A stretch of 20,000 nt of DNA from an uncultured virus (IMG/VR IMGVR_UViG_3300001346_000004) (lineage: Duplodnaviria; Heunggongvirae; Uroviricota; Caudoviricetes): IMG/VR virus record IMGVR_UViG_3300001346_000004. One strand, given 5' to 3'. Positions 3 through 18,253 of this stretch are shown here, one piece after another (positions within the stretch are counted from its first letter, which is position 1; every line of letters starts with the position of its first letter). The notes beneath the pieces were generated by a model. It ran no database searches and was not told the origin of the DNA. It worked only from the letters and a program-made list of their open reading frames with translations. The translations under genes and the position numbers were made by a program.

Positions 3-419
3 AATTCGGATCCTAAGAATCCGGACTTCTTTTTCCAACCACTTATATTTTTAGAATCATTTAACAGCCCAGCCATACTGATGAAAATTGGTGGGCATGA
101 AGTTAAGATGCCTTTAGATTGGTCAATACTAGTTGGAGATAGTGAAAGCGGGTCTGACCCAGAAATATTGCCGCTTACATCTATCAACGAAAGAGGATTT
201 GAAGCATTTGTTTTTAATCCAATTAAAGGATATAAATTAGATTATACTGATATAGAAATAATTAACATCTATCAAGATGTTAGATGGTATTTTCCTAAAA
301 TGAAAAACGGACAATTACTATCAGTACCACTACACAACGAGTACAACCCACCATGTGCATTTTTTGTAAAAGAAATAAGCAGACAATCAGAAATAGTTTC
401 TGTGGGAGATTTGATGTGA
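3..419 (+). CDS. Phage hypothetical protein, 5'-truncated by the window edge; possible degenerate Hint-like beta fold
   Basis: The frame of ORF 81..419 is open back to position 3 (NSDPKNPDFFFQPLIFLESFNSPAIL-MKIGG...), so the real start lies upstream of the window. Stop TGA at 417-419. Confidence 0.75.
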   Translation, partial: NSDPKNPDFFFQPLIFLESFNSPAILMKIGGHEVKMPLDWSILVGDSESGSDPEILPLTSINERGFEAFVFNPIKGYKLDYTDIEIINIYQDVRWYFPKMKNGQLLSVPLHNEYNPPCAFFVKEISRQSEIVSVGDLM

Positions 420-455
420 TAAGTATTGATAACGCCGAAAAGAAAAGGAAGGTAT

Positions 456-824
456 ATGACTATGAAAGCAGGTAAAATATGGGGACAAACAGAACTCATT
501 CATGCGAACGGTGTACTAGAGTTTCATCGTATTGAATATAAAGCAGGTTATAAATGTTCAGAACACGAACATCAATATAAATGGAACGGATTCTTTGTTG
601 AATCGGGCAAGATGATTGTACGTGTTTGGCAAGATGCTGATCAAGAAGGACTAGTAGATGAAACTATTCTCGAAGCAGGTGAATTCACACAGGTAAAGCC
701 AGGAAAGATACATCAGTTTGAAGGACTAGAAGATGGAGTTGCTTTTGAATTGTACTGGGCTGAATTTAATCATGACGATATTGTTAGACGCACTGTCGGA
801 ACTAAAATTAAAGGTAACAAATGA
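456..824 (+). CDS. Cupin-fold protein (RmlC-like / sugar isomerase type)
   Basis: Cupin motifs CSEHEHQYKWNGFFVESG and GEFTQVKPGKIHQF. ATG 456 (or 462) follows AAGGAAGG. Confidence 0.8.
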   Translation: MTMKAGKIWGQTELIHANGVLEFHRIEYKAGYKCSEHEHQYKWNGFFVESGKMIVRVWQDADQEGLVDETILEAGEFTQVKPGKIHQFEGLEDGVAFELYWAEFNHDDIVRRTVGTKIKGNK

Positions 825-1582
825 AAGTAGGAATAATAGGTTACGGTTGGATAGGAAAGGCAACACAAAAACTCTTTCCAGATGCACAAGTATATGACAA
901 ATATATAGAAGGGTATACGAAACCTTTAGAAAATTGTGACATTGCATTTCTTGCTGTACCTACTCCATGGAATCAAGGAGACGGACTAGATTGTTCTGCT
1001 GTAGAAGATGCAATAGCAACATGTGGTGCTGACTTTATTGTAATTAGAAGTGCAACACAGCCAGGATTTGCAGACGAAATGGTTAAGAAATACAAAAAGA
1101 AAATAGTTGTACAACCAGAATACCTAGGCGAAACACCTAATCATCCTTTCTTACAGATGGATTCAAGACAGTTTATGATTATAGGCGGTGAAGCAGAAGA
1201 TAGAAGAAAAGTTATTGAATGCTATCAACAAGCCTACAATGCAAACGTCACTATTAGACAAGTAACAAGATACGAAGCAGAAATTATTAAATTTACAGAA
1301 AATCGTGCAATATTTTACAAGGTTATGCAGTGTCAAGAACTGTATGATGCATGTGAAGCAGCAGGAGTAGATTACTACACAATACGTGATGCAGTTTACG
1401 GTGACGACCCAAGACAAAACTTATGGTTCAGTTTTGTGTTTCCTAAAAATAGAGGAGCCAACAGTAAATGCATTCCTAAAGACATTTACGGATGGTGTGC
1501 ATGGGCAGAAAGCGTTGGTGTTGATCCTAAAGCAACAAAATCTTTACTAGAATACAATCAGTTTTTGCTCGGCAAAGATTAA
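821..1582 (+). CDS. ugd: UDP-glucose/GDP-mannose dehydrogenase family protein lacking the C-terminal UDP-binding domain
   Basis: Rossmann GIIGYGWIG, FLAVPTP, IRSAT, PEYL, AEIIKFTEN (catalytic Lys) and SKCIPKD (catalytic Cys). Only 253 aa. Confidence 0.85.
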   Translation: MKVGIIGYGWIGKATQKLFPDAQVYDKYIEGYTKPLENCDIAFLAVPTPWNQGDGLDCSAVEDAIATCGADFIVIRSATQPGFADEMVKKYKKKIVVQPEYLGETPNHPFLQMDSRQFMIIGGEAEDRRKVIECYQQAYNANVTIRQVTRYEAEIIKFTENRAIFYKVMQCQELYDACEAAGVDYYTIRDAVYGDDPRQNLWFSFVFPKNRGANSKCIPKDIYGWCAWAESVGVDPKATKSLLEYNQFLLGKD

Positions 1583-1588
1583 TCAGAA

Positions 1589-2218
1589 ATGATTAATAAA
1601 ATTACCACAGTTATAGCAGGCGATGCAAATTTTAAAAAATATGTAGACAAAGCAGTTGCATATTCTAAAAATGTTGGATATGATCCTGTAGTTTATGATT
1701 TAGGCGGACTAGGTTACGGAACTCCTTTCAATGCAAGGGTAAGTCCTAAAGTCGGAGCAAAAATACCGTCGAAACCAGGCCTAATTATGGAAACTTTGAA
1801 GACTGTCAACGACGGCGATTACGTTGTGTGGCTAGATGCTGACGCACTTATAGAACAACCTATAGATGAAATAATGTTTGACTATGATATAGGTGTTACA
1901 GTAAGACAACCTAAACAAATTGAAAATAGTTTGCCTATAAATGCAGGAATAGTGTTTGTAAGAAAAACAAAGGCTGCTTTAGACTTCGTAGAACGATGGA
2001 TGACACTGTGTGAGACAGGTATAAGCGACCAACAAGAACTAAACAAGTTGTGCAAAGTAACAACTGAACATACAGACACCACAGTAATTAGAGGATACGT
2101 AAGAATACGTGTGTTTCCTTGTAAAATCTATAATAATTTTTATTTTGCAAAAAAGAAAGTACCGCATGCAAAAATAAAACATTATAAAAGTAAACTAAGA
2201 CATCTTTGGCCGGAGTAA
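1589..2218 (+). CDS. GT-A fold glycosyltransferase (nucleotide-diphospho-sugar transferase)
   Basis: YVVWLDADA DxD motif, INAGIVFV, SDQQELN, C-terminal IKHY. Lies in the sugar-nucleotide cluster. Confidence 0.8.
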   Translation: MINKITTVIAGDANFKKYVDKAVAYSKNVGYDPVVYDLGGLGYGTPFNARVSPKVGAKIPSKPGLIMETLKTVNDGDYVVWLDADALIEQPIDEIMFDYDIGVTVRQPKQIENSLPINAGIVFVRKTKAALDFVERWMTLCETGISDQQELNKLCKVTTEHTDTTVIRGYVRIRVFPCKIYNNFYFAKKKVPHAKIKHYKSKLRHLWPE

Positions 2219-2220
2219 AC

Positions 2221-3042
2221 ATGAAAATATTAGTAACAGGTAGTAACGGATACATAGGAAAACATTTATGTAAAATGTTACATGGAAAGTATGAATTACA
2301 TGGAATTGATCTAGACGATGAAAGCCATACAGCGTATCTTACTAAGTATTTTCCAATTAATATTGATGAAAAATTTCAATTGACAGATGAATACGACTGT
2401 GTAATACACCTAGCAGCCTTAGTAAGAGTTGGAGAAAGTGTTAGCCACAGGTCAAGATACGAAAAAACAAATATAGTTGGAACACGCAACGTTTTAAACG
2501 GAGCAAATTACAAAAATTTTGTATTTGGATCAACTGGTGCTGCTGCAACACCTACATCTCCTTATGCTCTAACAAAATTAATGGCAGAAGGCGAAATAGA
2601 AGAAGTGTGTACCAATAATAACAAGCCGTACACTATGTTTAGATTTTATAATGTAACTGGTACCGATGGATTTGCTGCAACCAATCCAGATGGTTTGTTC
2701 TTCAAACTAAATGAAGCCATTGAAACTGGTGAATTTTCAATTTATGGTGGAGATTATGAAACTAGAGACGGTACAGCAATACGTGATTATGTACATGTCA
2801 ACGAAATTTGCAATGCATTAGAAAAAGCAATTACTGCACCTTCCAATTCTATAGAAAATTTAGGACATGGTAAAGGTTATACAGTAAAAGAGATAGTAGA
2901 CACTTTCAAAGAAGTAAACAAAGTGGAATTTGACGTAATTATTGAAGATAGACGTGAAGGAGATCCTCCAAAAAACGTTTTGGACTCAGTTTCAATTTAT
3001 ATGGAAGAACTTTACACATTGGAAGATTATCTAAAAATTTAA
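2221..3042 (+). CDS. galE: UDP-glucose 4-epimerase / NAD-dependent epimerase (extended SDR)
   Basis: ILVTGSNGYIG, VIHLAA, YALTK (YxxxK), RFYNVTG, DGTAIRDYVHV, RREGD. ATG 2221 follows GGAG. Confidence 0.9.
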   Translation: MKILVTGSNGYIGKHLCKMLHGKYELHGIDLDDESHTAYLTKYFPINIDEKFQLTDEYDCVIHLAALVRVGESVSHRSRYEKTNIVGTRNVLNGANYKNFVFGSTGAAATPTSPYALTKLMAEGEIEEVCTNNNKPYTMFRFYNVTGTDGFAATNPDGLFFKLNEAIETGEFSIYGGDYETRDGTAIRDYVHVNEICNALEKAITAPSNSIENLGHGKGYTVKEIVDTFKEVNKVEFDVIIEDRREGDPPKNVLDSVSIYMEELYTLEDYLKI

Positions 3043-3521: not shown

Positions 3522-3984
3522 AGACGCAAAATTAAAACTAAATGAAATACTTGGTGCTATTGATCTCAACGCAAAAGAAGTATGGGATGATTTGTCAGAA
3601 GAGCAACGTAAAAGTATTGTTTTCTTCACGCTTAACCGCTATATAAGCAACGTACAAGGGTCTAGAGAAGATAAGGAGCACTTTGTACTGCTAGGCAACG
3701 AACGCTTTAATAAGAACCTTTTCCTGCTGTTAAACAAGCATAATAAATTACTATGGCAACTAGCATGTAGTTGTGGTCATGAGTCAAAAAAGGTGTTTTT
3801 CCATAAATGGATGAAACTAACAAAAAGCAAAAACAAAAAGGCAGAGTTTTTAGGCAAACTGTATCCTAATATGAAACAGGTAGATTTGGATGCAATGAGT
3901 GAAATTACAACAGATAAAGAGATCAAAGAATACTGCAAAGAATTAGGCTGGGATAAGAAAGAAATCAATGCAATCAAATTATAA
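3511..3984 (+). CDS. T4 gp62-like sliding-clamp loader small subunit
   Basis: The pattern FTLNRYIS...NERFN...LLWQL...FHKWMK...FLGKLYP resembles the gp62 (clamp loader A subunit) family. Size (157 aa) and replication-gene context fit. Confidence 0.6.
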   Translation: MMSKDAKLKLNEILGAIDLNAKEVWDDLSEEQRKSIVFFTLNRYISNVQGSREDKEHFVLLGNERFNKNLFLLLNKHNKLLWQLACSCGHESKKVFFHKWMKLTKSKNKKAEFLGKLYPNMKQVDLDAMSEITTDKEIKEYCKELGWDKKEINAIKL

Positions 3985-4651
3985 ATGTCCATACTGTGGT
4001 AAGTCATTTTCAAAAGAGAAGACTCTGGCAGTACATGTGTGTGAACCGAAAAGACGTCATTTATCTAAAAACGAAAAGCATGTTCAACTGGCGCTTTTGA
4101 CATACCAACGATTTTATGAAATTAGTCAACAACAGCAAGGTAAGACATTTGACGAGTTTGTGAAGAGTCCATACTATAATGCGTTTGTAAAGTTTGGAAG
4201 TTTTATGTCTAACGCTAACCCTATATACCCAGAAAAATTTATAGACTTTGTTATAAAGAGCGGAGTGAAACTAGATCATTGGTGCCGTGATGAATTATAT
4301 GATACATATCTAAAAGAATTATTAAAAATTGAACCTGCTGATGGTGCAATACAAAGAACAATAAAAACTATGATGGATTGGGCAGACGATAATGAAGCAA
4401 CATGGAATCATTATTTTAGTTACTGCAATCTAAACAGAGCAACACACGATATTAAAGAAGGCAAAATATCTCCATGGTTACTTTTACAAAGTAAGACAGG
4501 AAAAAAGATGTTGAAAACTATGAATGATGAACAACTATCAATAATAGGAGATATTATTAGTCCCCAACACTGGATAGGCAGATTTAAAAAACTTCCTGCT
4601 GACGTTGAACTAGTCAAAGAAGTAATAGCGGAGGCAAAAATAGATGGATAA
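3968..4651 (+). CDS. N-terminal zinc-finger protein of unknown function
   Basis: YKCPYCGKSFSKEKTLAVHVC matches the classical finger consensus Y-x-C-x2-C-GK-x-F-x5-L-x2-H. Confidence 0.8.
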   Translation: MQSNYKCPYCGKSFSKEKTLAVHVCEPKRRHLSKNEKHVQLALLTYQRFYEISQQQQGKTFDEFVKSPYYNAFVKFGSFMSNANPIYPEKFIDFVIKSGVKLDHWCRDELYDTYLKELLKIEPADGAIQRTIKTMMDWADDNEATWNHYFSYCNLNRATHDIKEGKISPWLLLQSKTGKKMLKTMNDEQLSIIGDIISPQHWIGRFKKLPADVELVKEVIAEAKIDG

Positions 4652-5243
4652 TAAATTACATGCAGACATGTGGTTTCCTAGTATCTTGTGGAGTACAATG
4701 CTTGAAGACATAGATAATAAAGCACTAGTTGAGTATGCCAATCAATTAAGAAGCCAAGATAGTGAAGGGCAACATCATAGTAACAGAACAGGATATCATA
4801 GTACTTACATAGAAAACAGTAACAACAATGCTTATATTAAACTACTAGAAAGAATAAACAGTTGTGTAAATGAATGTGCAAAAAGTGTGCGATTAGGTGA
4901 TGTAAAATTGGCAAACATATGGTTCATGATTAATGGCAAAGGAGCCTACAATATTCCACATACACATCCTGGATCAATTCTAAGCGGAGTGTATTATCCA
5001 TATGCTATTCCAGGTATGGGTGCATTTGCATTTGAAAGAACAGACGGAGCAGAACACTATCTACCAACAGTTCCAGAACCTACTCCATTTAATGTAGGAA
5101 ATTGGCATTATCCAAGTGAGACTGGAAAATTACTTATATTTCCAAGTTGGTTACGTCACCATGTAGAACAGAATCAGATAGATGAAGAAAGAGTAAGTAT
5201 TTCATTTAATTTTTCTAGTACAAGGGAGTATCAAGATGCCTGA
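4644..5243 (+). CDS. 2OG-Fe(II) oxygenase (TIGR02466-like phage family)
   Basis: PHTHPGSILSGVYY, LLIFPSWLRHHV, RVSISFN. Confidence 0.88.
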   Translation: MDNKLHADMWFPSILWSTMLEDIDNKALVEYANQLRSQDSEGQHHSNRTGYHSTYIENSNNNAYIKLLERINSCVNECAKSVRLGDVKLANIWFMINGKGAYNIPHTHPGSILSGVYYPYAIPGMGAFAFERTDGAEHYLPTVPEPTPFNVGNWHYPSETGKLLIFPSWLRHHVEQNQIDEERVSISFNFSSTREYQDA

Positions 5244-5808
5244 TATAGATATAGATTTTTTAGATAGAGAAAAAGCATTATCTCATTTTAAACATGTTCG
5301 TGCAAGACGTGAAGATGATGGTAAGGTACTTAAACACAACACAGGAGTTTACATGCACGAGGTTCCTTTTGATCCTAAAAATAACTTGTGTAGTATAGAG
5401 TATGACAAAGCCGAAGATAACGGTTTGTTTAAACTTGATTTCTTAAATGTATCGTTATACAAAGGNATCAAGAACGAAGAGCACCTAACAAAATTAATGG
5501 ATAAGGAACCACTATGGGAACTACTAGAACAGGACGATTTCTCAAACTTGCTCTTTCACGTCAACGGACATGGTATCATATTAAGAAAACTGAAACCAAC
5601 AAACATACCACAGTTGGCAGCGGTACTAGCGATGATACGTCCGGCGAAGAGACATCTGATAGAAAAGACGTGGACGGACATTATGAACGAGGTGTGGACG
5701 AAGCCTAAAGGTAATGAATACTTCTTTAAAAAATCTCATGCAACAGCATATGCGGTAGCAGTTGTTGTACAAATGAACTTAATCTGCGAGCAATTATATG
5801 AACTATGA
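5236..5808 (+). CDS. dnaE: Miniature DNA polymerase III alpha (C-family) catalytic fragment
   Basis: MPDIDIDF, KHNTGVY, GLFKLDFLNV, LAAVLAMIRPA and YFFKKSHATAYA are the DnaE palm/finger motifs, in order, within 190 aa. Confidence 0.85.
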   Translation: MPDIDIDFLDREKALSHFKHVRARREDDGKVLKHNTGVYMHEVPFDPKNNLCSIEYDKAEDNGLFKLDFLNVSLYKXIKNEEHLTKLMDKEPLWELLEQDDFSNLLFHVNGHGIILRKLKPTNIPQLAAVLAMIRPAKRHLIEKTWTDIMNEVWTKPKGNEYFFKKSHATAYAVAVVVQMNLICEQLYEL

Positions 5809-6037
5809 AATGAACGATTATAGAAAACCCCCTAAAAAACCTAAGTTAGGTAAATGGCCTTTTTGGGTTGTTCCTGAATTCTGGGCATTACAATACGTAA
5901 CAAGACTTGCATTGGTATTGTTTGTCCTGCCATTCTTGTTCGGCATGGCACTAACACCCGGTGGTATATTCTTAATGTTTATAGTGTATGATTATGTGAC
6001 TTACCGCTCACTTAAGACGGCTTTCGGACTAGAGTAA
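5798..6037 (+). CDS. Small membrane protein
   Basis: Two hydrophobic segments (LALVLFVLPFLFGMAL; GIFLMFIVY). Overlaps the dnaE stop. Confidence 0.6.
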   Translation: MNYEMNDYRKPPKKPKLGKWPFWVVPEFWALQYVTRLALVLFVLPFLFGMALTPGGIFLMFIVYDYVTYRSLKTAFGLE

Positions 6038-6383
6038 TTGACTTACGTTTTATTCTTTTAATAATAATATTGTTTAAACTTGTAACCGGACCATGCAAAA
6101 CTCTTACATCTTTTGAAGTAAAATTGCGTATTGTGTATGCAAACTGTTGTATTTCATTGCGTAAAAATATATTGATAGGAACTTGCCTGTTTGACTCCCA
6201 CCACCATGCTTCTCCTAGCTCAAGCATCTTACTTTTCTCTTCATCAGTACTACACAATTCATAGTCATAGAAGCTCGTAACATTGCTGTCTTGGTTTATT
6301 ATTATTCCCACATATTCCTTGTCAGAGTGTGTTAATACGCTAATAAACGGGAAGTTCTCTTGTAAATTTTTTGTTATTCTCAT
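6012..6383 (-). CDS. Phage hypothetical protein (WWWESNR motif)
   Basis: 123-aa ORF with a globular, protein-like sequence; divergent from the gene at 6438. Confidence 0.8.
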   Translation of the reverse strand: MRITKNLQENFPFISVLTHSDKEYVGIIINQDSNVTSFYDYELCSTDEEKSKMLELGEAWWWESNRQVPINIFLRNEIQQFAYTIRNFTSKDVRVLHGPVTSLNNIIIKRIKRKSITLVRKPS

Positions 6384-7346: not shown

Positions 7347-8378
7347 ATGACTTTGGTTCTAGATACATTTCAGACACTTATTCCGCCTCGGGCAAAAAGT
7401 AATCCAAGCGGTTGGACTAGTTTTAATGCTCCGTGTTGCCATCATCGCGGACATAGTACTGACAAGCGTAAGCGTGGTGGACTTAGATTTGATTCAGGTG
7501 TAGTTTTTAACTGTTTCAATTGTAAGTATACTGCTAGTTGGCAACCTGGCAGACCGTTATCTGAAAAGTTTAAATCTTTATGTAGATGGCTAGGCGCATC
7601 AGAAGATACTATCAATGTTATGATATTCGAAGCATTGAAAACAGAATCTCCTGAATACACGCCAAGAGAATCACAAGTCAGGATATCATTTGCAGAAAAG
7701 AAACTTCCTGATAACAGTTTGCCAATTGCTGAATGGCTCGACTCCGACTTTGCTGGCAATAAAAAACTTGAAGAAATGTTTGCAAAAGTTGTTGCATATA
7801 TCTATGACAGAGGATTTGATCCAACAAGTAAAGACTTTTATTGGAGCCCTCAAGAAGGATACCAAGACAGAGTAATAGTTCCTTTCTATTACAAAGGTAA
7901 AACAGTTGGTAACACAGCAAGAAAGGTAAGAAGCGGAAGGCCTAAATATCTAAGTGATCATCACAATAGTTTTGTATATAACATTGATGCACAAGAAGAA
8001 GATCAGAAATATATATTTGTTACAGAAGGTCCTTTCGATGCATTATCTGTCGATGGTGTAGCATTACTTACAAACAATGTAAGCGAGCAACAATATAGAA
8101 TTATCCAAGGACTAGGACATGAAGTAATTGTTATTCCAGATCAAGATGAAGCAGGAATAAACTTAATTAATAAGTCAATTGAATATGGTTGGAGTGTTGC
8201 TTTTCCTAATTGGGAAGATGATGTTAAAGATATAGCAGACGCTGTAATAAAGTATGGTAAACTATTTGTTATGATGGATGCTATTAAAACTGCACAAGCA
8301 GGATCAATAAAACTTAACATGGCAAAGCAGAAGTTTAAGAATAAGTTGGAGAAAATAAATGAAAAAGCAACTATGTAA
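7347..8378 (+). CDS. dnaG: DNA primase (T4 gp61/DnaG-like)
   Basis: N-terminal Zn-binding FNAPCC...FNCFNC, RVIVPF, PKYL, Toprim motifs VTEGPFDA and IPDQDEAG, KDIAD. Confidence 0.9.
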   Translation: MTLVLDTFQTLIPPRAKSNPSGWTSFNAPCCHHRGHSTDKRKRGGLRFDSGVVFNCFNCKYTASWQPGRPLSEKFKSLCRWLGASEDTINVMIFEALKTESPEYTPRESQVRISFAEKKLPDNSLPIAEWLDSDFAGNKKLEEMFAKVVAYIYDRGFDPTSKDFYWSPQEGYQDRVIVPFYYKGKTVGNTARKVRSGRPKYLSDHHNSFVYNIDAQEEDQKYIFVTEGPFDALSVDGVALLTNNVSEQQYRIIQGLGHEVIVIPDQDEAGINLINKSIEYGWSVAFPNWEDDVKDIADAVIKYGKLFVMMDAIKTAQAGSIKLNMAKQKFKNKLEKINEKATM

Positions 8379-8484: not shown

Positions 8485-8507
8485 CAAGAATGGAAAGGAT
8501 ACATCGA

Positions 8508-8744
8508 ATGAAGAATGAGTTTCAAGTAGGAATATTTGAAGTATTCAAGAATTTACTAAAAGGAAATAGTATAACCTTAGCACTAATATATACAGCAGGA
8601 CATGTTATAATAGCAATGAATGTTGTGTATTGGATGACAGGCGCAAGTCTTTTCGAAGCAGGATTAGTTGCTTTGGTTGAGCCAAGTATCAACGGCGTTT
8701 GGTTTTACATTTTACATAAACTATGGAAAAAATATAACACATGA
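8508..8744 (+). CDS. DUF2061-like small membrane protein
   Basis: LALIYTAGHVIIAMNVVYWMTG...ALVEPSINGVWFYILHKLW pattern. ATG 8508 follows AAGGA (alternative start 8490). Confidence 0.7.
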   Translation: MKNEFQVGIFEVFKNLLKGNSITLALIYTAGHVIIAMNVVYWMTGASLFEAGLVALVEPSINGVWFYILHKLWKKYNT

Positions 8745-10213
8745 TAAGTTGGGGCATAAGTGCCAATAGTCACGATGGTTCATTAGCAGTATTTGATAAT
8801 AACGAATTAGTATTTGCTAGCCATACAGAAAGATTTAGCGGGTTAAAAAATGATCCGCACCTTAATAAACCATTGCTTGATTATGCAAGACAGTGGGGAG
8901 AACCTAACGAAGTGATATGGTATGAGAAGCCATTTAAGAAAACTGTAAGACAACTGTATGCTGGGCAAGGCTGGAACTGGAACGAAAACAATGTTAAAAG
9001 TTATCTAAAACAATTTAACATTAATGCACCCTTAGGTTACAGTAACCACCATGAAAGTCATGCAGCCGCAGGATATTACACTAGCGGATTTAAAGATGCA
9101 ACTGTTATAGTTCTTGACAGTATAGGTGAATGGGAAACTTATACTATCTGGGAAGGTAACGGAGACAAACTTAAGAAAGTATACTCACAAGAATATCCAC
9201 ACAGTGTAGGATTGTGGTATAGTGCAATGACACAGCGAGTAGGATTAAAGCCTAATGAAGATGAATATATTCTAATGGGAATGGCTGCATACGGAGATCA
9301 AAGAGAACACTATCATCATATGCGAGAAACATTCTTTGAACTTGGGCCGCACGATCACTGGACCTTTCCTGATGTAAAATTTAAACACAATTTACATAGA
9401 GGATGTAAATGGTATAGAGAAGGATACAATAAATGGACTGACAAACTTAATATTGCAGCAGCAACGCAAAGCATATACGAAGATATATTCATAGGGATAG
9501 TTGAACATTGCTTTAACAAATATAAAAGTAAAAATTTAGTTGTAATGGGCGGGTGTGCATTAAACTGTAAGGCAAATAGCAAAGCATCTGCATATTATAA
9601 AAATGTATGGATAATGCCTAATCCAGGCGATGCAGGTAGTAGTGTTGGTGCTGTATTAGCACACAAAGGCAAACATATTAAATGGCAAAGTCCTTATTTA
9701 GGATACGACATAAAAGGTGAATATCCTGTAGATAATCTATTTAAAAAACTTAAAAGTACAGGTATGGTAGGTGTTGCAAATGGAAAAGCAGAGTTTGGGC
9801 CTAGAGCATTAGGCAATAGAAGTTTACTTGCAGATCCGAGAGGGCAGGACATGAAGGACAAAGTAAACTCAATAAAGAAAAGACAAAAATATAGACCATT
9901 TGCTCCGGTAATTTTGGCAGAACATGCTGAACAATATTTTTATGGTGATGTAGGACCATACATGCAATTTACATCTAAATGTAGAAAAGCAAAAGACTTT
10001 CCTGCAATTGTACATGTAGACGGAACAAGTAGAGTGCAAACTGTTGGTAAAGATGATAATACAGGTTTACGAGAACTTTTGGAAAGATGGTATGGCAAGA
10101 CTGGATGCCCAATGTTACTTAACACTAGTCTAAATATCAAAGGAAAGCCGATGGTTAATAACGAAAAGGATGCAAAAAAGTTTGCTCATAAGTACGGTGT
10201 GAGTGTATACTAA
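8741..10213 (+). CDS. Carbamoyltransferase, NodU/CmcH family
   Basis: GISANSHDGS, HHESHAA, DSIGE, EYILMGMAAYG, GGCALNC, PGDAGSSVG, EFGPRALGNRSLL, RPFAP, HVDGTSRVQTV, LNTSLN. Confidence 0.95.
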   Translation: MISWGISANSHDGSLAVFDNNELVFASHTERFSGLKNDPHLNKPLLDYARQWGEPNEVIWYEKPFKKTVRQLYAGQGWNWNENNVKSYLKQFNINAPLGYSNHHESHAAAGYYTSGFKDATVIVLDSIGEWETYTIWEGNGDKLKKVYSQEYPHSVGLWYSAMTQRVGLKPNEDEYILMGMAAYGDQREHYHHMRETFFELGPHDHWTFPDVKFKHNLHRGCKWYREGYNKWTDKLNIAAATQSIYEDIFIGIVEHCFNKYKSKNLVVMGGCALNCKANSKASAYYKNVWIMPNPGDAGSSVGAVLAHKGKHIKWQSPYLGYDIKGEYPVDNLFKKLKSTGMVGVANGKAEFGPRALGNRSLLADPRGQDMKDKVNSIKKRQKYRPFAPVILAEHAEQYFYGDVGPYMQFTSKCRKAKDFPAIVHVDGTSRVQTVGKDDNTGLRELLERWYGKTGCPMLLNTSLNIKGKPMVNNEKDAKKFAHKYGVSVY

Positions 10214-10246: not shown

Positions 10247-11689
10247 ATGGCTGATACTAAAAATTACGATTACGAAGTCCAAAAAGTTTATTTGGAAATG
10301 ATGCTGGCTGACGCAGAAACATTTGTGCGTTGTCAAGGTATCTTTGATCATACACTATTTGACAGAAAATTGCAAGATGCTGCAGAGTTTGTAAATGAAT
10401 ACACAAAGCAGTATAGTGTAATGCCTGACTTTGAAACAGTAAATGCAAGTTGCAGAACTGATTTGAAAGCACCAAAAGAACTTAAAGAAGGACATCTACA
10501 ATGGTTAATGGATGACTTTGAAAGTTTTACAAGGCACAAAGCACTAGAACGTGCAATTATTAATTCAGCAGATTTATTAGAAAAGAATGACTATGGATCA
10601 GTAGAAGCCATGGTTAAAGATGCAGTTCAAATTGGACTGGCACGTGACATGGGTACAGATTACTTTTTAGATCCAAGAGCAAGACTTATGGGACTTAAAG
10701 ATAAGAACGGACAGGTTAGTACTGGTTGGGATACCATGGACAGAAAACTGTTTGGTGGTTTTAACAGAGGCGAACTGAATATTTTTGCAGGTGGATCGGG
10801 TGCAGGTAAAAGTTTATTCTTAGCAAACTTAGGTGTTAACTGGGCACTACAAGGATTGAATGTTGTTTACTTAACACTTGAACTTAGTGAGCAACTTGTA
10901 AGTATGCGTGTGGATAGTATGGTAACAGGTATTACTACAAGAGACATTTTCAAGAACATTGACGATGTTGAAATGAAAGTTAAGATGATTGGTAAGAAGT
11001 CGGGTGCATTACAAGTTAAGTATATGCCTAGTGGTAAAACTACAAACGATATTAGAGCGTATTTAAAAGAGTATGAAATTAAAGTAGGCAAGAAAGTAGA
11101 TGTATTATTAGTAGACTACTTAGACTTGTTGATGCCTGTAGGTAAAAAAATTAGTGCAGAGAACTTGTTTGTTAAAGACAAGTATGTATCAGAAGAACTT
11201 CGTAACCTAGCAATGGAATTACAGTGTGTGTTTGTAACTGCGGCACAGTTGAATAGAGGTGCAGTAGAAGAAGTAGAGTTTGATCACTCGCACATAAGTG
11301 GCGGACTTAGTAAGATTCAAACAGCAGATAATGTAATAGGTATCTTTACAAGTAGAGCAATGCGTGAACGTGGACGTTATCAATTACAACTTATGAAAAC
11401 ACGTTCTAGTAGTGGTGTGGGACAAAAAGTAGATTTAGAATTTAACATTGAGACACTAAGGATTACTGATCTTGATGAGGATGAACAAGAAGCAACGAAC
11501 GGTAACAATAGAGGCAGCAGTAGTATAATAGATAGCATTAAAAGAAAAACAGAAGTACAAAACACCCAAGATCCTACAAATGATGATCCAACACAAGGAG
11601 TATCAGTAGGTAAAATCAGAGGCAAAGTAGAGTCAACAAAATTGCGTGAGATTTTGAATAATATGGGTGATGATGATGAGGAACACTAA
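10247..11689 (+). CDS. dnaB: Replicative DNA helicase (T4 gp41/DnaB family)
   Basis: STGWDTMD, Walker A GGSGAGKS, YLTLEL, Walker B LLVDYLDL, TAAQLNR, MKTRS; acidic C-terminal tail. Confidence 0.93.
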   Translation: MADTKNYDYEVQKVYLEMMLADAETFVRCQGIFDHTLFDRKLQDAAEFVNEYTKQYSVMPDFETVNASCRTDLKAPKELKEGHLQWLMDDFESFTRHKALERAIINSADLLEKNDYGSVEAMVKDAVQIGLARDMGTDYFLDPRARLMGLKDKNGQVSTGWDTMDRKLFGGFNRGELNIFAGGSGAGKSLFLANLGVNWALQGLNVVYLTLELSEQLVSMRVDSMVTGITTRDIFKNIDDVEMKVKMIGKKSGALQVKYMPSGKTTNDIRAYLKEYEIKVGKKVDVLLVDYLDLLMPVGKKISAENLFVKDKYVSEELRNLAMELQCVFVTAAQLNRGAVEEVEFDHSHISGGLSKIQTADNVIGIFTSRAMRERGRYQLQLMKTRSSSGVGQKVDLEFNIETLRITDLDEDEQEATNGNNRGSSSIIDSIKRKTEVQNTQDPTNDDPTQGVSVGKIRGKVESTKLREILNNMGDDDEEH

Positions 11690-11922: not shown

Positions 11923-12636
11923 ATGCGCATACAGGACCTACTATTCGAGCAAGCAGATTTCGTTACAGTCAATAGAAGACTGAATCCTAAACTATGGAAA
12001 AATGACACTCTTAAACCTGAGATAAAAGAGCAATTAATTAAAATTGCAAAAGTATTTGAAGAGTTTATTGGTATTGACATAGAAGTAATCAACTATACAA
12101 TTACAGGATCAAATGCAAACTATATGTGGACTGAATACAGTGATTTAGATTTACATATTATTGTAAAAGGACTGCCTGATGAAAAAGAACGTGAATTGTT
12201 CAATGCTAAAAAAGCATTATGGGCAGAAGAACACAACATCACTATCAAAGGTTTACCTGTAGAATGTTATGTACAAGGATCAAAAGAAGAACACCATTCA
12301 ACAGGTGTTTATAGTATAGTTACTGATCAGTGGTTAGAAAAACCTAAAAAAGTAAAACCAGAAGTTGATGACGCGGCAGTAAAGGCTAAGAAGAACAGTA
12401 TTCATCATGATATAGAAACTGCACTTCTAAGTAAAGATATTACTAAACTTAGACAAGTTAAAACAAAGATTACACAGATGCGTAAAGCAGGGCTTGCAAA
12501 AGCAGGTGAATGGTCTGTTGAGAATCTTGTGTTTAAAATTCTTAGAAATTTAGGAATGATAGACAAACTTACACAAGAAATTAGAGATCTTGAAGACCAA
12601 GAATTAAGCCTAGAAACTGCACCAATCTTACAATAA
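11923..12636 (+). CDS. Pol-beta superfamily nucleotidyltransferase
   Basis: ITGSNANYMWTEYSDLDLHII (GS...DxD) and a third carboxylate in PVECYVQ. Confidence 0.82.
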   Translation: MRIQDLLFEQADFVTVNRRLNPKLWKNDTLKPEIKEQLIKIAKVFEEFIGIDIEVINYTITGSNANYMWTEYSDLDLHIIVKGLPDEKERELFNAKKALWAEEHNITIKGLPVECYVQGSKEEHHSTGVYSIVTDQWLEKPKKVKPEVDDAAVKAKKNSIHHDIETALLSKDITKLRQVKTKITQMRKAGLAKAGEWSVENLVFKILRNLGMIDKLTQEIRDLEDQELSLETAPILQ

Positions 12637-13370: not shown

Positions 13371-13447
13371 CTGCTCGTAGCTCAGCCGGATAGAGCACTA
13401 GTTTGCGGAACTAGAGGCCGGTGGTTCGAATCCACCCGAGCAGGCCA
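13371..13447 (+). tRNA. tRNA-Arg, anticodon GCG, encoded CCA
   Basis: Acceptor stem CTGCTCG/CGAGCAG, D arm GCTC/GAGC with A20, anticodon stem CTAGT/ACTAG with loop TT-GCG-GA, T arm GGTGG-TTCGAAT-CCACC, G73, CCA. Confidence 0.95.
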
Positions 13448-13739: not shown

Positions 13740-14042
13740 ATGATCGGATCAATTATATTTTTTATAGGATTTACTGTAATGACGTTAAACGAAGGGTTCG
13801 TTATAATGCGTCATGTACATCCTTGGTTTGCAAACAAACGTGATGCACTGATTGCTAAACACGGCGCAGCGTGGAAGAAGTTTCATGCTACACTAGACTA
13901 CGTATGGATAGGTGGTGTAACAATAGGTATAGCAGTAGACTATACTAACTGGAAGTTTTACGCAACTGTGTTAGCAATCTTTTGGGGAATAGTTGCAGTA
14001 TTTGTCTACTTACCTTTACTAATTAAAAAACTTAAAAAGTAA
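13740..14042 (+). CDS. Membrane protein (about 3 TM segments); start revised to 13740
   Basis: TAAATA (13729-13734)-agcat-ATG 13740. This start removes the overlap with the previous gene. Confidence 0.72.
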   Translation: MIGSIIFFIGFTVMTLNEGFVIMRHVHPWFANKRDALIAKHGAAWKKFHATLDYVWIGGVTIGIAVDYTNWKFYATVLAIFWGIVAVFVYLPLLIKKLKK

Positions 14043-14068
14043 AGTTAATAGCACTATATAACCTATGC

Positions 14069-14114
14069 TAAACACCGTCTAAGACGCATTTTAAGCGTCA
14101 TACAGCGGTGTTTA
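14069..14114. other. Intergenic extended stem-loop
   Basis: TAAACACCG (14069-14077) pairs with CGGTGTTTA (14106-14114) and encloses GACGC (14083-14087)/GCGTC (14095-14099). Confidence 0.7.
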
Positions 14115-14199
14115 CTATACACTGCACCACAAACACTACAAGCACTAAAACAGACGTTTTACGTTAGGCTTATAGAATATCAAAACAGTTAAATACAGT

Positions 14200-14445
14200 A
14201 TGGATTGGGAAACAATAGGCGATTTTGAATGGCGCCAAGAAGTATGTAGCGAGGACGATTCAGTTTCTCCTCCACGTCCACTTTGGCGTGTGTTTATAAA
14301 AGGTGCTGCTGGAAATGTTTGTGCCGATGACATACTTTGGTGTGTAGGGCGTGAAGATATTTTGAGCACCTACTACTGGGAAATGATAGCAGTACTAGAT
14401 GGACACTATCACTGTTGCTTGTCTGGAAAGACTTTTACTTTTTGA
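14200..14445 (+). CDS. Hypothetical Cys/Trp-rich protein
   Basis: Preceded by TAAATA (14190-14195)-cagt-ATG; converges on ORF 14409..14630. Confidence 0.6.
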   Translation: MDWETIGDFEWRQEVCSEDDSVSPPRPLWRVFIKGAAGNVCADDILWCVGREDILSTYYWEMIAVLDGHYHCCLSGKTFTF

Positions 14446-14630
14446 TACTTCTTTTGTTGATACCACATCAGCCACGGTGAAATGTGTGCAAAGCACATTA
14501 TCAGCCACATAGCAGGCATTTCCCAATTTGCATGATGCAAGTGTCCTTGACTCATCACACTGTATATAAACCCTAATAGGAATGCTGGTGCTGGAGCAAG
14601 GCTAAAAAATACATTGATTTTTCTTATCAT
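14409..14630 (-). CDS. Small membrane protein (2 TM segments, His-rich loop)
   Basis: TAAATA-tatac-ATG on the - strand; two hydrophobic helices flank QGHLHHAN. Confidence 0.7.
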   Translation of the reverse strand: MIRKINVFFSLAPAPAFLLGFIYSVMSQGHLHHANWEMPAMWLIMCFAHISPWLMWYQQKKYQKVKVFPDKQQ

Positions 14631-14649
14631 GTATATATTTATTTAAATA

Positions 14650-14901
14650 CTATCTTTGCAATTTGGCCTTTAACGCAGCTCTTTTCTTTTCAGTTTCGAT
14701 TGCTTGTCTTATTTTTCTACCCCAAGGTAATTTTATTCTATCTACAATTTCTTTACCTTTTTTATTGATATACTCAACGCCTATAAACATATCTTTAAAG
14801 TCGCTTTGTACTGCTTTGACTGCTCTCGTTAAACTTAATTGCTCTGTATCTTTTTCATCACCTGCTTCGTTCCAAAAATGGAACTTTCTCATTTTTGCCA
14901 T
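14650..14901 (-). CDS. Hypothetical basic protein
   Basis: TAATG overlap with the upstream 47-aa gene; AAGGA RBS. Confidence 0.75.
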   Translation of the reverse strand: MAKMRKFHFWNEAGDEKDTEQLSLTRAVKAVQSDFKDMFIGVEYINKKGKEIVDRIKLPWGRKIRQAIETEKKRAALKAKLQR

Positions 14902-15044
14902 TATCTTCCTTGTCCTTTATAAAATTTGTGACTTCGCTTTTTGTGTTTGTTCATACTGCTCATTTTGCATCTTCCTTTAGTACCAGCAGTGCTAGATTTT
15001 TTAGGCGTGCTTTCATGTGCCACAAAGTGCTTGTGTATTTTCAT
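14901..15044 (-). CDS. Small highly basic protein, 47 aa, ending NKHKKRSHKFYKGQGR (absent from the ORF track)
   Basis: MKIHKHFVAHESTPKKSSTAGTKGRCKMSSMNKHKKRSHKFYKGQGR. RBS AAGGA; its stop overlaps the next ATG. The Y(K/R)GQG(K/R) C-terminus resembles peptides I recall from T4-like marine phages. Confidence 0.8.
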   Translation of the reverse strand: MKIHKHFVAHESTPKKSSTAGTKGRCKMSSMNKHKKRSHKFYKGQGR

Positions 15045-15091
15045 AACTATCCTTGGGTTAGGTTGATTTTAGTTATGTGAGTAGTTATCTC

Positions 15092-15316
15092 TTATTGGGG
15101 ATTATTACAGGTATTTGGTGCAAATACGCAGCCTAATGCGTTTGCTATACCTTGGAAGTTTGGAGGACTTGTTTGTAGTGTGCTATCTTCAACAGCGTGT
15201 TCTTGCTGATGAGCTTCTTCTATTTTATCTAGTATGGGTCGTTGACCACAGGCTTGTACACTGAGAAGGACCAGAACTAACATCAATGCTATTGCTAATC
15301 TAATCTCCCAATTCAT
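15092..15316 (-). CDS. Putative lipoprotein
   Basis: Signal peptide ending VQA-C; TAAATA-ccctgt-ATG upstream. Confidence 0.7.
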   Translation of the reverse strand: MNWEIRLAIALMLVLVLLSVQACGQRPILDKIEEAHQQEHAVEDSTLQTSPPNFQGIANALGCVFAPNTCNNPQ

Positions 15317-15325
15317 ACAGGGTAT

Positions 15326-16186
15326 TTAGCGGTTGTTAAAATACTTTTTATATACGCAGTTTGCGAAGTTTTTGTGATGTGTTACACTTGGATGCATGTC
15401 ATTTTCTGCTGTTGGTATACTAGGATCTAGTATTGCTTCACAACTGGTATGATCCACAGGTATCGTATACCATGTTCTAGGATCGGGTATTTCCCATGGC
15501 TCTTGCAGTGTAGGATCAAGGTCTAGTGCTGCACGTTCAAGTTGCTCTATATATGGATCTGTTTCAACACTTAGATGTATAACATTTTTAGTACGTGAAC
15601 GCAAAAAGCCATCAGTCATAATTTGTAGCAATAGACTGTTATGATATCTGTCGTATACTCCTAGTGGATTAAACGTGGTGTTTGTGCTATCGTGTATAAA
15701 CTTGTATAGTTCGTCATCAACTGCACTTACAATATTGCTGCCTCTAGCACTAGCAGTACTTGCACTCAATCCAAACAGTTTGTTGAATCCGGGCCACAGC
15801 ACTGTGCTTAGACTTTTTTTAGCATCTACATAATGATGTAATGGCACTGATGTTCTAGCAGGCCACTGCATGCTGACTCTGCCTAGATAGGTCCACATAA
15901 CAACCACTGTATCATCAGGTTGTACTTGTTGTTGTGCAACTGCACACTGTCTAGCAATCTGCTGAAAGCAACTGCCACGTCGAGCATGATTTACCACAGT
16001 CATGTCAAGAGCATCTCCAAGCACTTGAGGCCAAGCATGCTTGCTGGGTGTGCTTAACATTTCGTCCGACCAATGATTGTCTCTGTCTAGTTCTTGTTGT
16101 TGTTCACTTGTTAGTGGAGGTGCAACTACATCAGGTAGTGCAAAGCCTTGTGTTATACTGCAACCAAATGTGTGTAGTGTACTCAT
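15326..16186 (-). CDS. SGNH/GDSL-hydrolase-like protein
   Basis: TFGCSITQG (block I), NHARRGS (block II), DMHPS..HH (block V). Confidence 0.7.
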   Translation of the reverse strand: MSTLHTFGCSITQGFALPDVVAPPLTSEQQQELDRDNHWSDEMLSTPSKHAWPQVLGDALDMTVVNHARRGSCFQQIARQCAVAQQQVQPDDTVVVMWTYLGRVSMQWPARTSVPLHHYVDAKKSLSTVLWPGFNKLFGLSASTASARGSNIVSAVDDELYKFIHDSTNTTFNPLGVYDRYHNSLLLQIMTDGFLRSRTKNVIHLSVETDPYIEQLERAALDLDPTLQEPWEIPDPRTWYTIPVDHTSCEAILDPSIPTAENDMHPSVTHHKNFANCVYKKYFNNR

Positions 16187-16187
16187 G

Positions 16188-16802
16188 TTATTGTATTCCG
16201 GTTATGTCAAGTTCTTTGGTATCGTCACCTATTGCTCCAATGGGCATGGTGTTAAATGCTATGCTGTATCTATAGTCTGTGTCGCTAGGGTCTACATGGT
16301 GTTTCAGTCTACTGGGAAACAGTATTACGTATCCTTGCTTGATGGGCACTTTGAGTACCTGCCAAGTGTGCGGATTGTTTTCTTGCCATAGTACTGTAGG
16401 CCTAACCATGAATAGATCTTCTGTAAGCAGTGGATTGTGAAAGTTTAATGGAGCACCATCTGTAAGATAAAACACACCACTTACATAACTGTTTGGATGT
16501 GTATGCGTGTGTATTGGTTCCGACTTTCTCAGTGTGTTACCCCAACTGTTGCCTATCTGTACACCTGTGACTGTATGTCCTTGAGTGTGTACATACTCCA
16601 ATGCAAGCAGTTCAAGTTCTGATTTAGTCTGTGCAAATACCGGTGCATCCAGCAAGCGTTGCGACTGTGTGACTGCACCATTAGTGCCAGACTGCTTGTC
16701 AGTTTCTGGTATGCTCTGCAAGTACTCTAGTGCAGCACCTGTGTCCAAATTAACTATAGGGGCTACCCCAATCCATGTGCCAAATATCTGTATCATCTGC
16801 AT
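16188..16802 (-). CDS. 2OG-Fe(II) oxygenase (TIGR02466-like), second paralog
   Basis: HTHPNSYVSGVFYL, ILFPSRLKHHV, RYSIAFN; TAAATA-tagtc-ATG upstream. Confidence 0.88.
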   Translation of the reverse strand: MQMIQIFGTWIGVAPIVNLDTGAALEYLQSIPETDKQSGTNGAVTQSQRLLDAPVFAQTKSELELLALEYVHTQGHTVTGVQIGNSWGNTLRKSEPIHTHTHPNSYVSGVFYLTDGAPLNFHNPLLTEDLFMVRPTVLWQENNPHTWQVLKVPIKQGYVILFPSRLKHHVDPSDTDYRYSIAFNTMPIGAIGDDTKELDITGIQ

Positions 16803-16841
16803 GACTATATTTAACGATGAAGTGCAGGTGCAGGCATAAAA

Positions 16842-16919
16842 GCGGCGAAGCCGTAAGCGCAGATTTTGCCGCGTAGCGGTAAGCGAGATTAGAGCTGCGA
16901 AGCAGCAAGCGGTAGCGCA
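16842..16919 (+). repeat. Three tandem 26-nt units, each a GNA-triloop hairpin followed by AAGCG
   Basis: GCGGC-GAA-GCCGT-AAGCG (16842), GCCGC-GTA-GCGGT-AAGCG (16868), GCTGC-GAA-GCAGC-AAGCG (16894). Confidence 0.85.
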
Positions 16920-16993
16920 GCAAATTTGTAACGGTTTTTCTCGTGGCCCCGGAGACTGTCGTCACGGTGCTGCTAGTGTGTTAGTGGGAATGT

Positions 16994-17203
16994 TTAGGCT
17001 ACGTTAGTGCCAGGTGTATACTCTTCAACAAATCCTGTCCATGTGTCACCAGTGCGTCTGCTTAGTTTTGCTGCATATTGATCAGCAAAGTCTTGTGCCA
17101 GTTTCTTTTGTGACATAGTGAAGTTGTTGCTGTACTGATTGCGATTCTGTACAGTTAGTTTGGTAGTTTCGTTGCGAGCTTTTGCTATGAGTCTTGTTTG
17201 CAT
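16994..17203 (-). CDS. Hypothetical protein
   Basis: gATAAATA-caatc-ATG upstream; 69 aa. Confidence 0.72.
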   Translation of the reverse strand: MQTRLIAKARNETTKLTVQNRNQYSNNFTMSQKKLAQDFADQYAAKLSRRTGDTWTGFVEEYTPGTNVA

Positions 17204-17232
17204 GATTGTATTTATCCTTTGCGCAAAAGAGT

Positions 17233-17330
17233 AGAACTTGTTTGTCTAATTTAACACACGCTGTTTGTATCTAGCACATAACAGTGCGTATCTATCTGAC
17301 TTGAAGTGTGTATTATAACAACAAGTTCTT
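17233..17330 (-). ncRNA. Candidate structured small RNA (rod with paired ends)
   Basis: Gap with no credible ORF. A 10-bp perfect terminal inverted repeat AGAACTTGTT/AACAAGTTCT, a further ACACAC/GTGTGT stem and a central GCAC/GTGC hairpin. TAAATA-N5 places +1 at 17330. Confidence 0.55.
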
Positions 17331-17372
17331 AATAATATTTAACTAGTAACACAGTATACTGCTTGTAATAGG

Positions 17373-17588
17373 CTATTTAGACGCTATTTTAACAGTGTAC
17401 AACTCACTTGAACCTAGTATAGCACATGCTAGTGTACAGTCTTTAGCACTGTGTAGTATAATTGAATTATGACTGTTTTGACTGCTGTCTATGCCCTTTA
17501 CAAACAGTTCTATTACTGCACTGTGCGTAATGTTATCACAGTAGTCGTGCAGTTTGTTGTCTGGGTAGGCTAGGTGCAGTGTGTACAT
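17373..17588 (-). CDS. Hypothetical protein
   Basis: 71 aa; TAATG coupling with the upstream ORF. Confidence 0.6.
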   Translation of the reverse strand: MYTLHLAYPDNKLHDYCDNITHSAVIELFVKGIDSSQNSHNSIILHSAKDCTLACAILGSSELYTVKIASK

Positions 17589-17803
17589 TATGTGCCGCTA
17601 GAGTGATCCGTTTCTGCATCTACACAGTGCATGTAGTCTCTATAGTGTAGATAGAATGTTCTATGCTGTTTAAGACTGGTATCCAACCAAAAACGTGTTC
17701 TATTGATGTGTGCTTCAAACTTTACGTTGTGTTCTTGTATACGGTTGAACAGCAGTGGCGTGTTCACAAAGTCTCGGGTGTATACACAGTATTGTTTAAT
17801 CAT
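17588..17803 (-). CDS. Hypothetical protein (FEAHINRTRFW)
   Basis: 71 aa; AAGGA RBS; overlaps the upstream 40-aa gene. Confidence 0.7.
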   Translation of the reverse strand: MIKQYCVYTRDFVNTPLLFNRIQEHNVKFEAHINRTRFWLDTSLKQHRTFYLHYRDYMHCVDAETDHSSGT

Positions 17804-18252: not shown

Positions 18253-18253
18253 G

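Follow-up and report, generated by a model that had tools for sequence, protein, structure and literature searches.

A short gene of an uncultured virus as the probable C-terminal unit of a two-gene minimal DNA polymerase III alpha

The stretch of DNA analysed here (IMG/VR record IMGVR_UViG_3300001346_000004; 20,000 nucleotides (nt), referred to below as the window) derives from an uncultured virus placed in the Caudoviricetes, and carries a short open reading frame (ORF) which an initial annotation, made from the letters alone, had described as a miniature and probably split DNA polymerase III (Pol III) alpha. The product of this ORF, 190 amino acids (aa) in length, is termed the C-half, and the separately encoded protein that would complete it is termed the N-half. 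The gene under study was assigned on the strength of its ORF, its match to phrog_11778, its fold and its ratio of nonsynonymous to synonymous substitution rates (dN/dS):

5236..5808, plus strand: C-half gene, 190 aa, predicted metal- and template-binding half of a split minimal DNA polymerase III alpha

Results

The C-half gene, its homologues and its selection

The gene starts with ATG, ends with TGA and runs through 190 codons without interruption. It shares 8 nt with ORF 4644..5243 before it and 11 nt with ORF 5798..6037 after it, just as the initial annotation had it in describing an uninterrupted ORF that overlaps both neighbours. The features by which this ORF had been recognised, a 190-aa product starting at MPDIDIDF and holding KLDFL, RP and F.KSHA.AYA, are all present in the translation, where they occur as MPDIDIDF (residues 1-8), FKLDFLN (65-71, with D68 as the third Asp), IRPAK (134-138) and FKKSHATAYA (164-173). 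The base at position 5466 is an N within a GGN codon that specifies Gly regardless, and the residue is G in a 96%-identical copy (L010). The public record closest to the window, G001, has the C-half in an open frame of 203 codons, leaving 13 open codons upstream, and as that frame is no longer than this the C-half frame cannot start farther upstream; over the first 555 nt the G001 copy is identical to that of the window except at the N codon.

Comparison with the PHROGs collection matched residues 3-186 of the C-half to positions 8-194 of the 197-position profile phrog_11778, annotated as 'DNA polymerase', with an E value of 1.4e-61, and as the profile is only 197 positions long phrog_11778 represents a family of short proteins. 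A tblastn search of the phage collection with the C-half returned 96 records, and in every one (96/96) the match extends over 80% or more of the query while identity stays below 60%, the best identities being found for Sinorhizobium phage Phosso (53%), Agrobacterium phage Atu_ph07 (49%), the PA5oct-like Pseudomonas phages (46%) and the 121Q/PBECO4 (Rak2-like) group (38%). In IMG/VR at least 537 of 600 pattern-matched stretches encode relatives of the C-half, and this count, taken together with the phrog_11778 E value, indicates that its resemblance to these relatives is far more than chance would produce. At the nucleotide level, a megablast comparison of window positions 3000-13000 with the phage collection gave zero matches.

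From IMG/VR, 80 C-half loci were kept (60-96% identical, matching query residues 1 to 185-190), 37 of which were aligned with the window protein (n=38). The alignment contains 56 invariant columns, which include M1-F8, F65-V72 with the exception of 67, I134-K138, and F164-A173 with the exception of 167, 170 and 171. Residues D3, D5, D7 and D68 are invariant in 38/38 sequences, and MPDIDIDF is found at residue 1 in each of the 38 despite differing upstream genes. When 1.84 billion cluster representatives were searched exhaustively by HMMER, the 38-sequence profile gave 527 matches at E <=1e-3, 344 at 1e-10 and 127 at 1e-30, and 149 of the best 150 representatives are 74-233 aa long. Selection was assessed by the Nei-Gojobori method with the window C-half as reference copy. 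The dN/dS ratio was 0.118 against L010, at a synonymous divergence (dS) of 0.097, and 0.06-0.12 for eight farther copies, the dS values of which (1.35-2.99) are partly saturated; five more copies gave no computable dS, and the G001 copy was without differences. The dN/dS comparison across homologues proposed along with the initial annotation thus returned 0.06-0.12 and no relaxed selection, a result which points to strong purifying selection on the C-half.

Placement of the C-half on DnaE and PolC

When run against the sequences of the PDB, the C-half profile (A1) retrieved DnaE chains only, comprising four distinct sequences at E <=0.01, and its alignment with Mycobacterium tuberculosis (Mtb) DnaE1 was collinear (E 2.7e-4), with residues 1-13 matching 413-425, 52-137 matching 565-663 and 160-174 matching 773-787. 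An AlphaFold2 model of the C-half, with a mean predicted local distance difference test score (pLDDT) of 87.1, was compared with known structures. All 11 of the 11 best Foldseek rows from the PDB were Pol III alpha, and all 16 of the 16 best VIA-align entries were DnaE or PolC (Z 9.4-6.0, with 171-188 of the 190 residues aligned), the next entry standing at Z 3.1. The aligned spans were 400..782 of E. coli alpha, 461..839 of the Taq enzyme, 419..809 of the Mtb enzyme and 971..1297 of PolC, such that the 190 residues of the C-half correspond to a span of about 380 DnaE residues.

The extent of the reduction was mapped on an ordinary bacterial full-length DnaE of 1160 aa from metagenome contigs (L185), onto which C-half residues 1-13, 60-137 and 160-174 fall at 409-421, 555-644 and 750-764, respectively. 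Segment 422-554 of this reference (~133 residues), the thumb region by the domain limits of E. coli alpha, is reduced to ~46 residues in the C-half, and the finger segment 645-749 (~105 residues) is reduced to ~22, while nothing before 409 or past ~780 is retained. Residues D5, D7 and D68 presumably equate to D401, D403 and D555 of E. coli alpha. The losses that the initial annotation had listed were confirmed by the mapping on E. coli alpha, Taq and PolC, in which the C-half has neither PHP nor the GRGS segment, has given up the greater part of the thumb and some 100 finger residues, and retains nothing past ~782. Measured against a canonical C-family replicase, a single chain with PHP, a complete PF07733 region, HhH, OB and clamp-binding parts, the C-half is a protein of 190 aa limited to the span 400-782.

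The separately encoded N-half of relatives

A search with PF07733 of the complete genomes of phages Phosso, 121Q and PAC2 gave one above-threshold match each, at profile positions of about 16-97. The matched ORFs, the N-halves, encode 168-180 aa, match positions of about 12-97 as proteins (E 2e-9 to 9e-13) and lie 31-224 kb from the respective C-half gene:

Phosso: N-half at 97.5 kb, C-half at 321.3 kb
121Q: N-half at 44.5 kb, C-half at 13.3 kb
PAC2: N-half at 173.1 kb, C-half at 129.3 kb

The C-terminus of the N-half follows the pattern WGVGRGSSVASY...W.EFLR, or in longer form WGVGRGSSVASYVLYLIGVH..KYNLDW.EFLR, and the isolate ORFs end in ...WGVGRGSSVASYVLYLIGVHKIDSLKYNLDWREFLR or near variants. 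The motif that had been predicted for a partner protein, G.GRGS...S...Y..G...(F/W)..FL, therefore fits the C-terminus of a separate 168-180-aa gene in relatives of the window phage. Relatives of the N-half are encoded in 276 of 290 matched IMG/VR stretches, and 34 columns of the N-half alignment (n=32) do not vary, G134, G136-V141 and F166-R168 among them. In the structural comparison the N-half model (pLDDT 89.1) found C-family polymerases in all of its 14 best entries (Z 10.3-6.5; next 2.5), with residues 61..168 placed on 273..393 of E. coli alpha, 303..413 of Mtb, 292..455 of Taq and 818..965 of PolC. Residues 1-60 of the N-half (e.g. L091:1498-2004:-) form a conserved extension without structural match, which is also kept in the fused forms described below.

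The junctions between the two halves fall at 393/400 in E. coli alpha, 413/419 in Mtb, 455/461 in Taq, 965/971 in PolC and 402/409 in the L185 DnaE; the N-half and C-half are contiguous pieces along the DnaE chain, the former ending where the latter begins. With regard to inteins, the C-half starts with M-P-D and has 13 open codons upstream, and the N-halves end at ...EFLR without extension. An intein-split DnaE was accordingly rejected, there being no room for intein fragments in either half, and since neither protein has such room any union of the two must be non-covalent. The absence of intein ends had been claimed from the window alone, and it extends to the partner, as the C-half opens at the catalytic motif and the N-halves of relatives stop at ...EFLR. 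Of the alternatives initially put forward, the one in which the C-half is one subunit and a GRGS-bearing partner is encoded elsewhere agrees with the separate, distant N-half gene of relatives, and an intein-free split minimal C-family polymerase of this kind is supported.

Co-occurrence of the two halves and of a family B polymerase

Both halves were found in 3/3 isolates tested (Phosso, 121Q and PAC2), in 2/2 tested records rated 100% complete (G009, 383 kb; G010, 365 kb), and also in G005, in G006 and on a 181-kb contig with L070 and L135. Counted by genus, the numbers of phage records with a C-half and with an N-half are almost the same, being 34/34 for Escherichia, 11/11 for Pseudomonas, 11/10 for Klebsiella, 8/8 for both Salmonella and Erwinia, and 4/4 for Xanthomonas. 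The N-half query retrieved 152 phage records, some of which, from Bacillus phages and others, match by a full-length DnaE gene; among the matches listed, 30 of the best 40 (of 96) C-half records recur in the best 60 of these 152, and the others may fall among the further 92. In uncultivated genomes with both halves the genes lie ~160-185 kb apart, and fragments can consequently miss one half with ease. The N-half profile (A2) found nothing in G002, G003, G004, G007 and G008, a result of little weight as all are fragments, and in G001 (a 33.6-kb fragment, 9% complete) the only PF07733 signals fell below the cut-off and were located within the C-half gene or immediately before it. The initial annotation had also expected such phages to replicate with a family B polymerase (PolB), and this is borne out in relatives: an open PolB frame of 887-907 aa is present in 6/9 related records (G004, G005, G009, G010, G011 and G014), including both complete ones, and was not found in the other three (G002, G003 and G006).

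Natural single-chain fusions

One of the best 150 representatives from the HMMER search, P0092, is a protein of 375 aa in which residues 14-180 match the N-half over its full length, the phage-specific 60 residues at its start included (37% identity, E 3e-26), and residues 189-362 match the window C-half (33% identity, E 2e-31), with PF07733 spanning the junction at residues 97-207. Two further proteins of 376 aa, P0152 and P0153 (81% and 78% identical to P0092), have the same architecture of N-half followed by C-half. In these P0092-type fusions the linker between the halves is ~8 residues and the order is that of DnaE, which is good, though indirect, evidence for a single unit made up of both halves. 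The next relatives of the fusions are 51-59% identical and 206-222 aa long, and the two that were aligned (P0154 and P0158) are stand-alone C-halves.

Genomic setting

The genes with family matches around the C-half gene are as follows:

3968..4651, plus strand: C2H2 protein, 227 aa, with the zinc finger at its N-terminus (phrog_11058)
4644..5243, plus strand: 2-oxoglutarate-Fe(II) (2OG-Fe(II)) oxygenase, 199 aa, placed after the C2H2 gene and before the C-half gene (PF13759, E 8.8e-22; phrog_81)
6012..6383, minus strand: small opposite-strand gene, 123 aa (phrog_11637, E 1.6e-34)
7347..8378, plus strand: Toprim DNA primase, 343 aa (PF13155; phrog_47, E 9.1e-33)
10247..11689, plus strand: DnaB/gp41-like replicative helicase, 480 aa (PF03796, E 2e-21; phrog_19, E 2.2e-71)

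The order C2H2 protein, C-half, small opposite-strand gene, structural-like protein, primase and helicase is common to the window, Phosso, 121Q and PAC2. In all three isolates a homologue of the C2H2 protein precedes the C-half, with 36% identity in PAC2 (E 7e-53; adjacent to the C-half), 36% in Phosso (E 1e-53) and 25% in 121Q (E 1e-31), and an opposite-strand ORF of 117-132 aa directly follows it. This conserved synteny is what ties the C-half to the C2H2 protein, which the initial annotation had named as a candidate DNA-binding partner. The oxygenase was not found at this position in Phosso, 121Q or PAC2, and is probably a local insertion outside the polymerase system. The T4-type replisome cluster of the initial annotation stands with regard to the primase and the gp41-like helicase downstream; its gp62-type component was not confirmed, no clamp-loader (gp62/gp44-type) match having been obtained within the window. 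In the three isolates the N-half block consists of the N-half, a small ORF and a GroES-like protein, with a gp44-like AAA+ clamp loader and a phosphatase 1-3 kb further on. Each half thus has its gene in a replication module, the C-half with primase and helicase and the N-half with a clamp loader.

Several other genes of the window were noted. A second 2OG-Fe(II) oxygenase gene (PF13759, phrog_81) lies at 16188..16802 on the minus strand. Directly downstream of the C-half, ORF 5798..6037 (plus strand) encodes a hydrophobic, membrane-like product of 79 aa with no family match, and Phosso, 121Q and PAC2 are without a gene there. A Nol-like carbamoyltransferase of 490 aa (8741..10213, plus strand; PF16861/PF02543, phrog_1601) and a small DUF2061 membrane protein (8490..8744) both stand between primase and helicase, and in Phosso, 121Q and PAC2 their genes adjoin or nearly adjoin each other. 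Right after the helicase, 11923..12636 (plus strand) encodes a second protein of the Pol-beta superfamily, of 237 aa (PF01909 NTP_transf_2, E 2.7e-4; phrog_36119, E 2.8e-54). The plus-strand gene block ends with a transfer RNA gene (tRNA-Arg, anticodon GCG) at 13371..13447 on the plus strand (ARAGORN; Rfam RF00005, 66.8 bits). Across 14001..20000 the GC content rises from ~0.34 to 0.42-0.46 and the AT skew changes sign; this shift coincides with a change to ORFs that lie mainly on the minus strand and seldom match a family, and could mark a different genome module or a junction. At the opposite end, 426..3042 (plus strand) holds a sugar-nucleotide run of a cupin, a dehydrogenase-like ORF, a nucleotide-diphospho-sugar transferase and an NAD-dependent epimerase/dehydratase, in which the UDP-glucose/GDP-mannose dehydrogenase-like ORF is short (253 aa, with part of the N-terminal domain and the central domain matched).

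Discussion

Profile matches, fold comparison and the gene pair of relatives together indicate that 5236..5808 very probably encodes the C-terminal unit of a minimal DNA polymerase III alpha which group 2.2 (Rak2-like) jumbo phages carry as two genes. In the arrangement we propose, the C-half would contribute the later portion of the Pol-beta-like palm, where the three aspartates D5, D7 and D68 bind metal, and also a much shortened thumb and the first finger helices (IRPAK, FKKSHA.AYA), while the separate N-half of ~170 aa would contribute the earlier portion, which bears the GRGS loop for triphosphate binding. The two may then associate non-covalently and rebuild a catalytic core of ~300 residues, equivalent to about 273-782 of DnaE, without the PHP, HhH, OB and clamp- or tau-binding parts. 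Such a complex could be an active, probably distributive, template-dependent DNA polymerase which works as an accessory enzyme in primer extension, gap filling or repair beside a PolB replicase. We consider that the two-gene core is an active DNA polymerase with a probability somewhat above even. A DnaQ-like epsilon subunit, annotated in 121Q and Atu_ph07, was considered as a proofreader of the mini core, from which the PHP domain, the epsilon-binding site in E. coli alpha, is absent. A bolder proposal, which we regard as quite unlikely, is that the core of ~300 residues (two chains, or one chain of 375 aa in the fusions) might be a self-sufficient templated polymerase and a primase-coupled primer-extension enzyme that hands over to a clamp-bound PolB. 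Were this so, it would be the smallest C-family polymerase known, and RNA primers would be extended and then handed over as they are by Pol alpha in eukaryotes and by DnaE in B. subtilis.

Against this, the C-half amounts to no more than roughly a sixth of a DnaE and is invisible to Pfam, as might be expected if it were a decaying fragment of a full-length dnaE or an assembly or gene-calling artefact at the 5' boundary. The dN/dS values of 0.06-0.12, however, are not those of a decaying gene; at least 537 of 600 IMG/VR stretches encode relatives, and the 80 kept loci match from residue 1 to 185-190; the relatives are uniformly short (149/150 best representatives of 74-233 aa, and at least 80% coverage in 96/96 phage records); and the start at MPDIDIDF is shared by 38/38 sequences with differing upstream genes, only 13 codons being open upstream. 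The selection, the uniform length of the relatives and their common start rule out both the pseudogene and the assembly-error readings, to which we attach a negligible probability, and the C-half is a selected gene, neither a pseudogene nor a boundary artefact. A non-catalytic role, in which the C-half would serve as a replisome scaffold alone or with another partner such as the C2H2 protein or the primase, the N-half being functionally unrelated, could draw on the 31-224 kb between the halves in three isolates, on several large fragments with only one half and on the C2H2 gene as a conserved neighbour. It is nevertheless very improbable, as the halves are exactly contiguous in one fold of which neither has a complete palm, the fusions link them in DnaE order via an 8-residue linker, there is no variation in the catalytic aspartates or in the GRGS loop, and every genome rated complete holds both halves.

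The main rival to an active polymerase is a two-gene core repurposed as a nucleotidyltransferase that is not DNA-templated, and would act in untemplated tailing, end processing or the formation of a nucleotide-derived product. The contraction of the thumb from ~133 to ~46 residues and of the finger segment from ~105 to ~22, with HhH, OB and clamp-binding parts gone, would suit such an enzyme, as would the full PolB of ~900 aa that these phages, judged from relatives, already possess, and the 60 extra N-terminal residues of the N-half without structural match. We judge it unlikely, as the invariant parts that are kept are the C-family-specific finger motifs IRPAK and FKKSHA.AYA, to which the available text of Iyer et al. 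2021 (PMC7824862) ascribes template binding, both genes lie in replisome modules (primase-helicase and clamp loader), and no match in sequence or fold to other nucleotidyltransferase families was obtained, the rows below the C-family polymerases reaching Z <=3.1.

A number of observations weigh against the two-gene polymerase itself. Pfam assigned no family to the C-half, which fails PF07733, and in the Foldseek search of the PDB with the C-half model no row reached E 0.001, the best being 2.2e-3; likewise, profile A2 found nothing at E 0.01 among PDB sequences, the placement of the N-half having come from Pfam and fold comparison. The N-half and PolB are known from relatives, and the nearest record, G001, is without an N-half. 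Nor was an N-half found in the other C-half fragments G002, G003, G004, G007 and G008; together with G001 these six are 9-79% complete and include the four longest contigs of the closest clade of the window. G004, at 280 kb and 79% complete without a detectable N-half, is a real gap in the evidence. Conversely, no C-half was found in the N-half fragments G011, G012 and G013 (33-56% complete). No longer homologues of P0001 turned up in a word-based search, the fusions having surfaced only in the exhaustive search, and their DNA context was not found in the viral or metagenome contigs searched. Stable or processive synthesis is doubtful, since of the features by which DnaE stays on DNA the core has lost the HhH and clamp-binding parts altogether and the thumb for the most part, and a full-text literature search found no biochemical test of, or experiment on, the split-polymerase family.

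To our knowledge, C-family polymerases are the main bacterial replicases and always large multidomain proteins. The DnaE and PolC enzymes of known structure (E. coli 2hnh, Taq 2hpi/3e0d/4iqj, M. tuberculosis 5lew and G. kaustophilus PolC 3f2b) have the same palm and finger fold as the C-half and share with it the Asp pair MPD.D.DF, the third Asp in K.DFL, RP(G/A) and F(N/K)KSHA.AY. They are, however, single chains of 900-1400 aa with PHP, full thumb and fingers, HhH, OB and clamp- or tau-binding parts, whereas the phage core amounts to ~300 residues in two proteins; a conserved and selected core of this size in two genes would indicate how little of DnaE suffices to keep the active site. Division of dnaE into two distant genes is also the case in cyanobacteria, where Synechocystis and Nostoc DnaE-n and DnaE-c carry intein fragments and are joined by trans-splicing into a full-length DnaE. 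The phage halves, by contrast, are without intein, the break lies inside the palm and the N-half stops one residue after FL. The DnaE of B. subtilis, a full-length and clamp-binding enzyme, is a primer-extension polymerase that hands over to PolC, and thus resembles the phage core as a C-family polymerase beside a different main replicase. It is the model behind the primer-extension hypothesis, and the only tie of the phage core to such a hand-off is its gene position by the primase.

The system closest to that of the window was described by Iyer, Anantharaman, Krishnan, Burroughs and Aravind in 2021 (Viruses 13:63, PMC7824862), the available text of which reports a split minimal Pol III alpha in group 2.2 (Rak2-like) jumbo phages, states that it accompanies a family B polymerase, suggests that the two cooperate in the synthesis of one strand or in repair, and proposes the minimal core as a model of the ancestral enzyme. 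Apart from this account, the full-text literature search returned no description of a split or minimal polymerase. Both halves are already labelled in GenBank, for instance in Phosso, where both genes appear as 'DnaE-like DNA polymerase III alpha', and the accessible parts of further papers record Pol III alpha (gp316) and an epsilon subunit as annotations in Atu_ph07 (Attai et al. 2018, PMC6102473) and PF07733 in 51.9% of the marine cluster PGC_A (Weinheimer and Aylward 2022, PMC9123017); the retrieved portion of the PA5oct omics paper has no passage on a split polymerase. To the published account, as far as its available text extends, the present analysis adds a residue-level map in which the halves abut at about 393/400 of E. 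coli alpha, the dN/dS figures, and three fusions of 375-376 aa (P0092, P0152 and P0153) that would be a convenient construct for biochemistry and of which that text makes no mention.

As in the system of Iyer et al. (PMC7824862, as given in its available text), the window has a short C-terminal unit with Mg- and template-binding subdomains and without PHP or other DnaE domains. The N-terminal nucleoside triphosphate-binding unit of that system lies at a distant locus, as is also seen in relatives of the window phage, and its family B polymerase, gp41-like helicase and primase co-occur, the helicase and primase being present in the window and PolB in relatives. The window C-half is 38-53% identical to the copies in 121Q, the PA5oct-like phages, Atu_ph07 and Phosso. 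No difference in kind from the system of Iyer et al. is apparent in that part of the article (PMC7824862), the window copy being distinguished by its uncultivated low-GC (~35%) lineage and by the oxygenase gene that stands before the C-half. The gene at 5236..5808 is a further, uncultivated lineage of an already published system.

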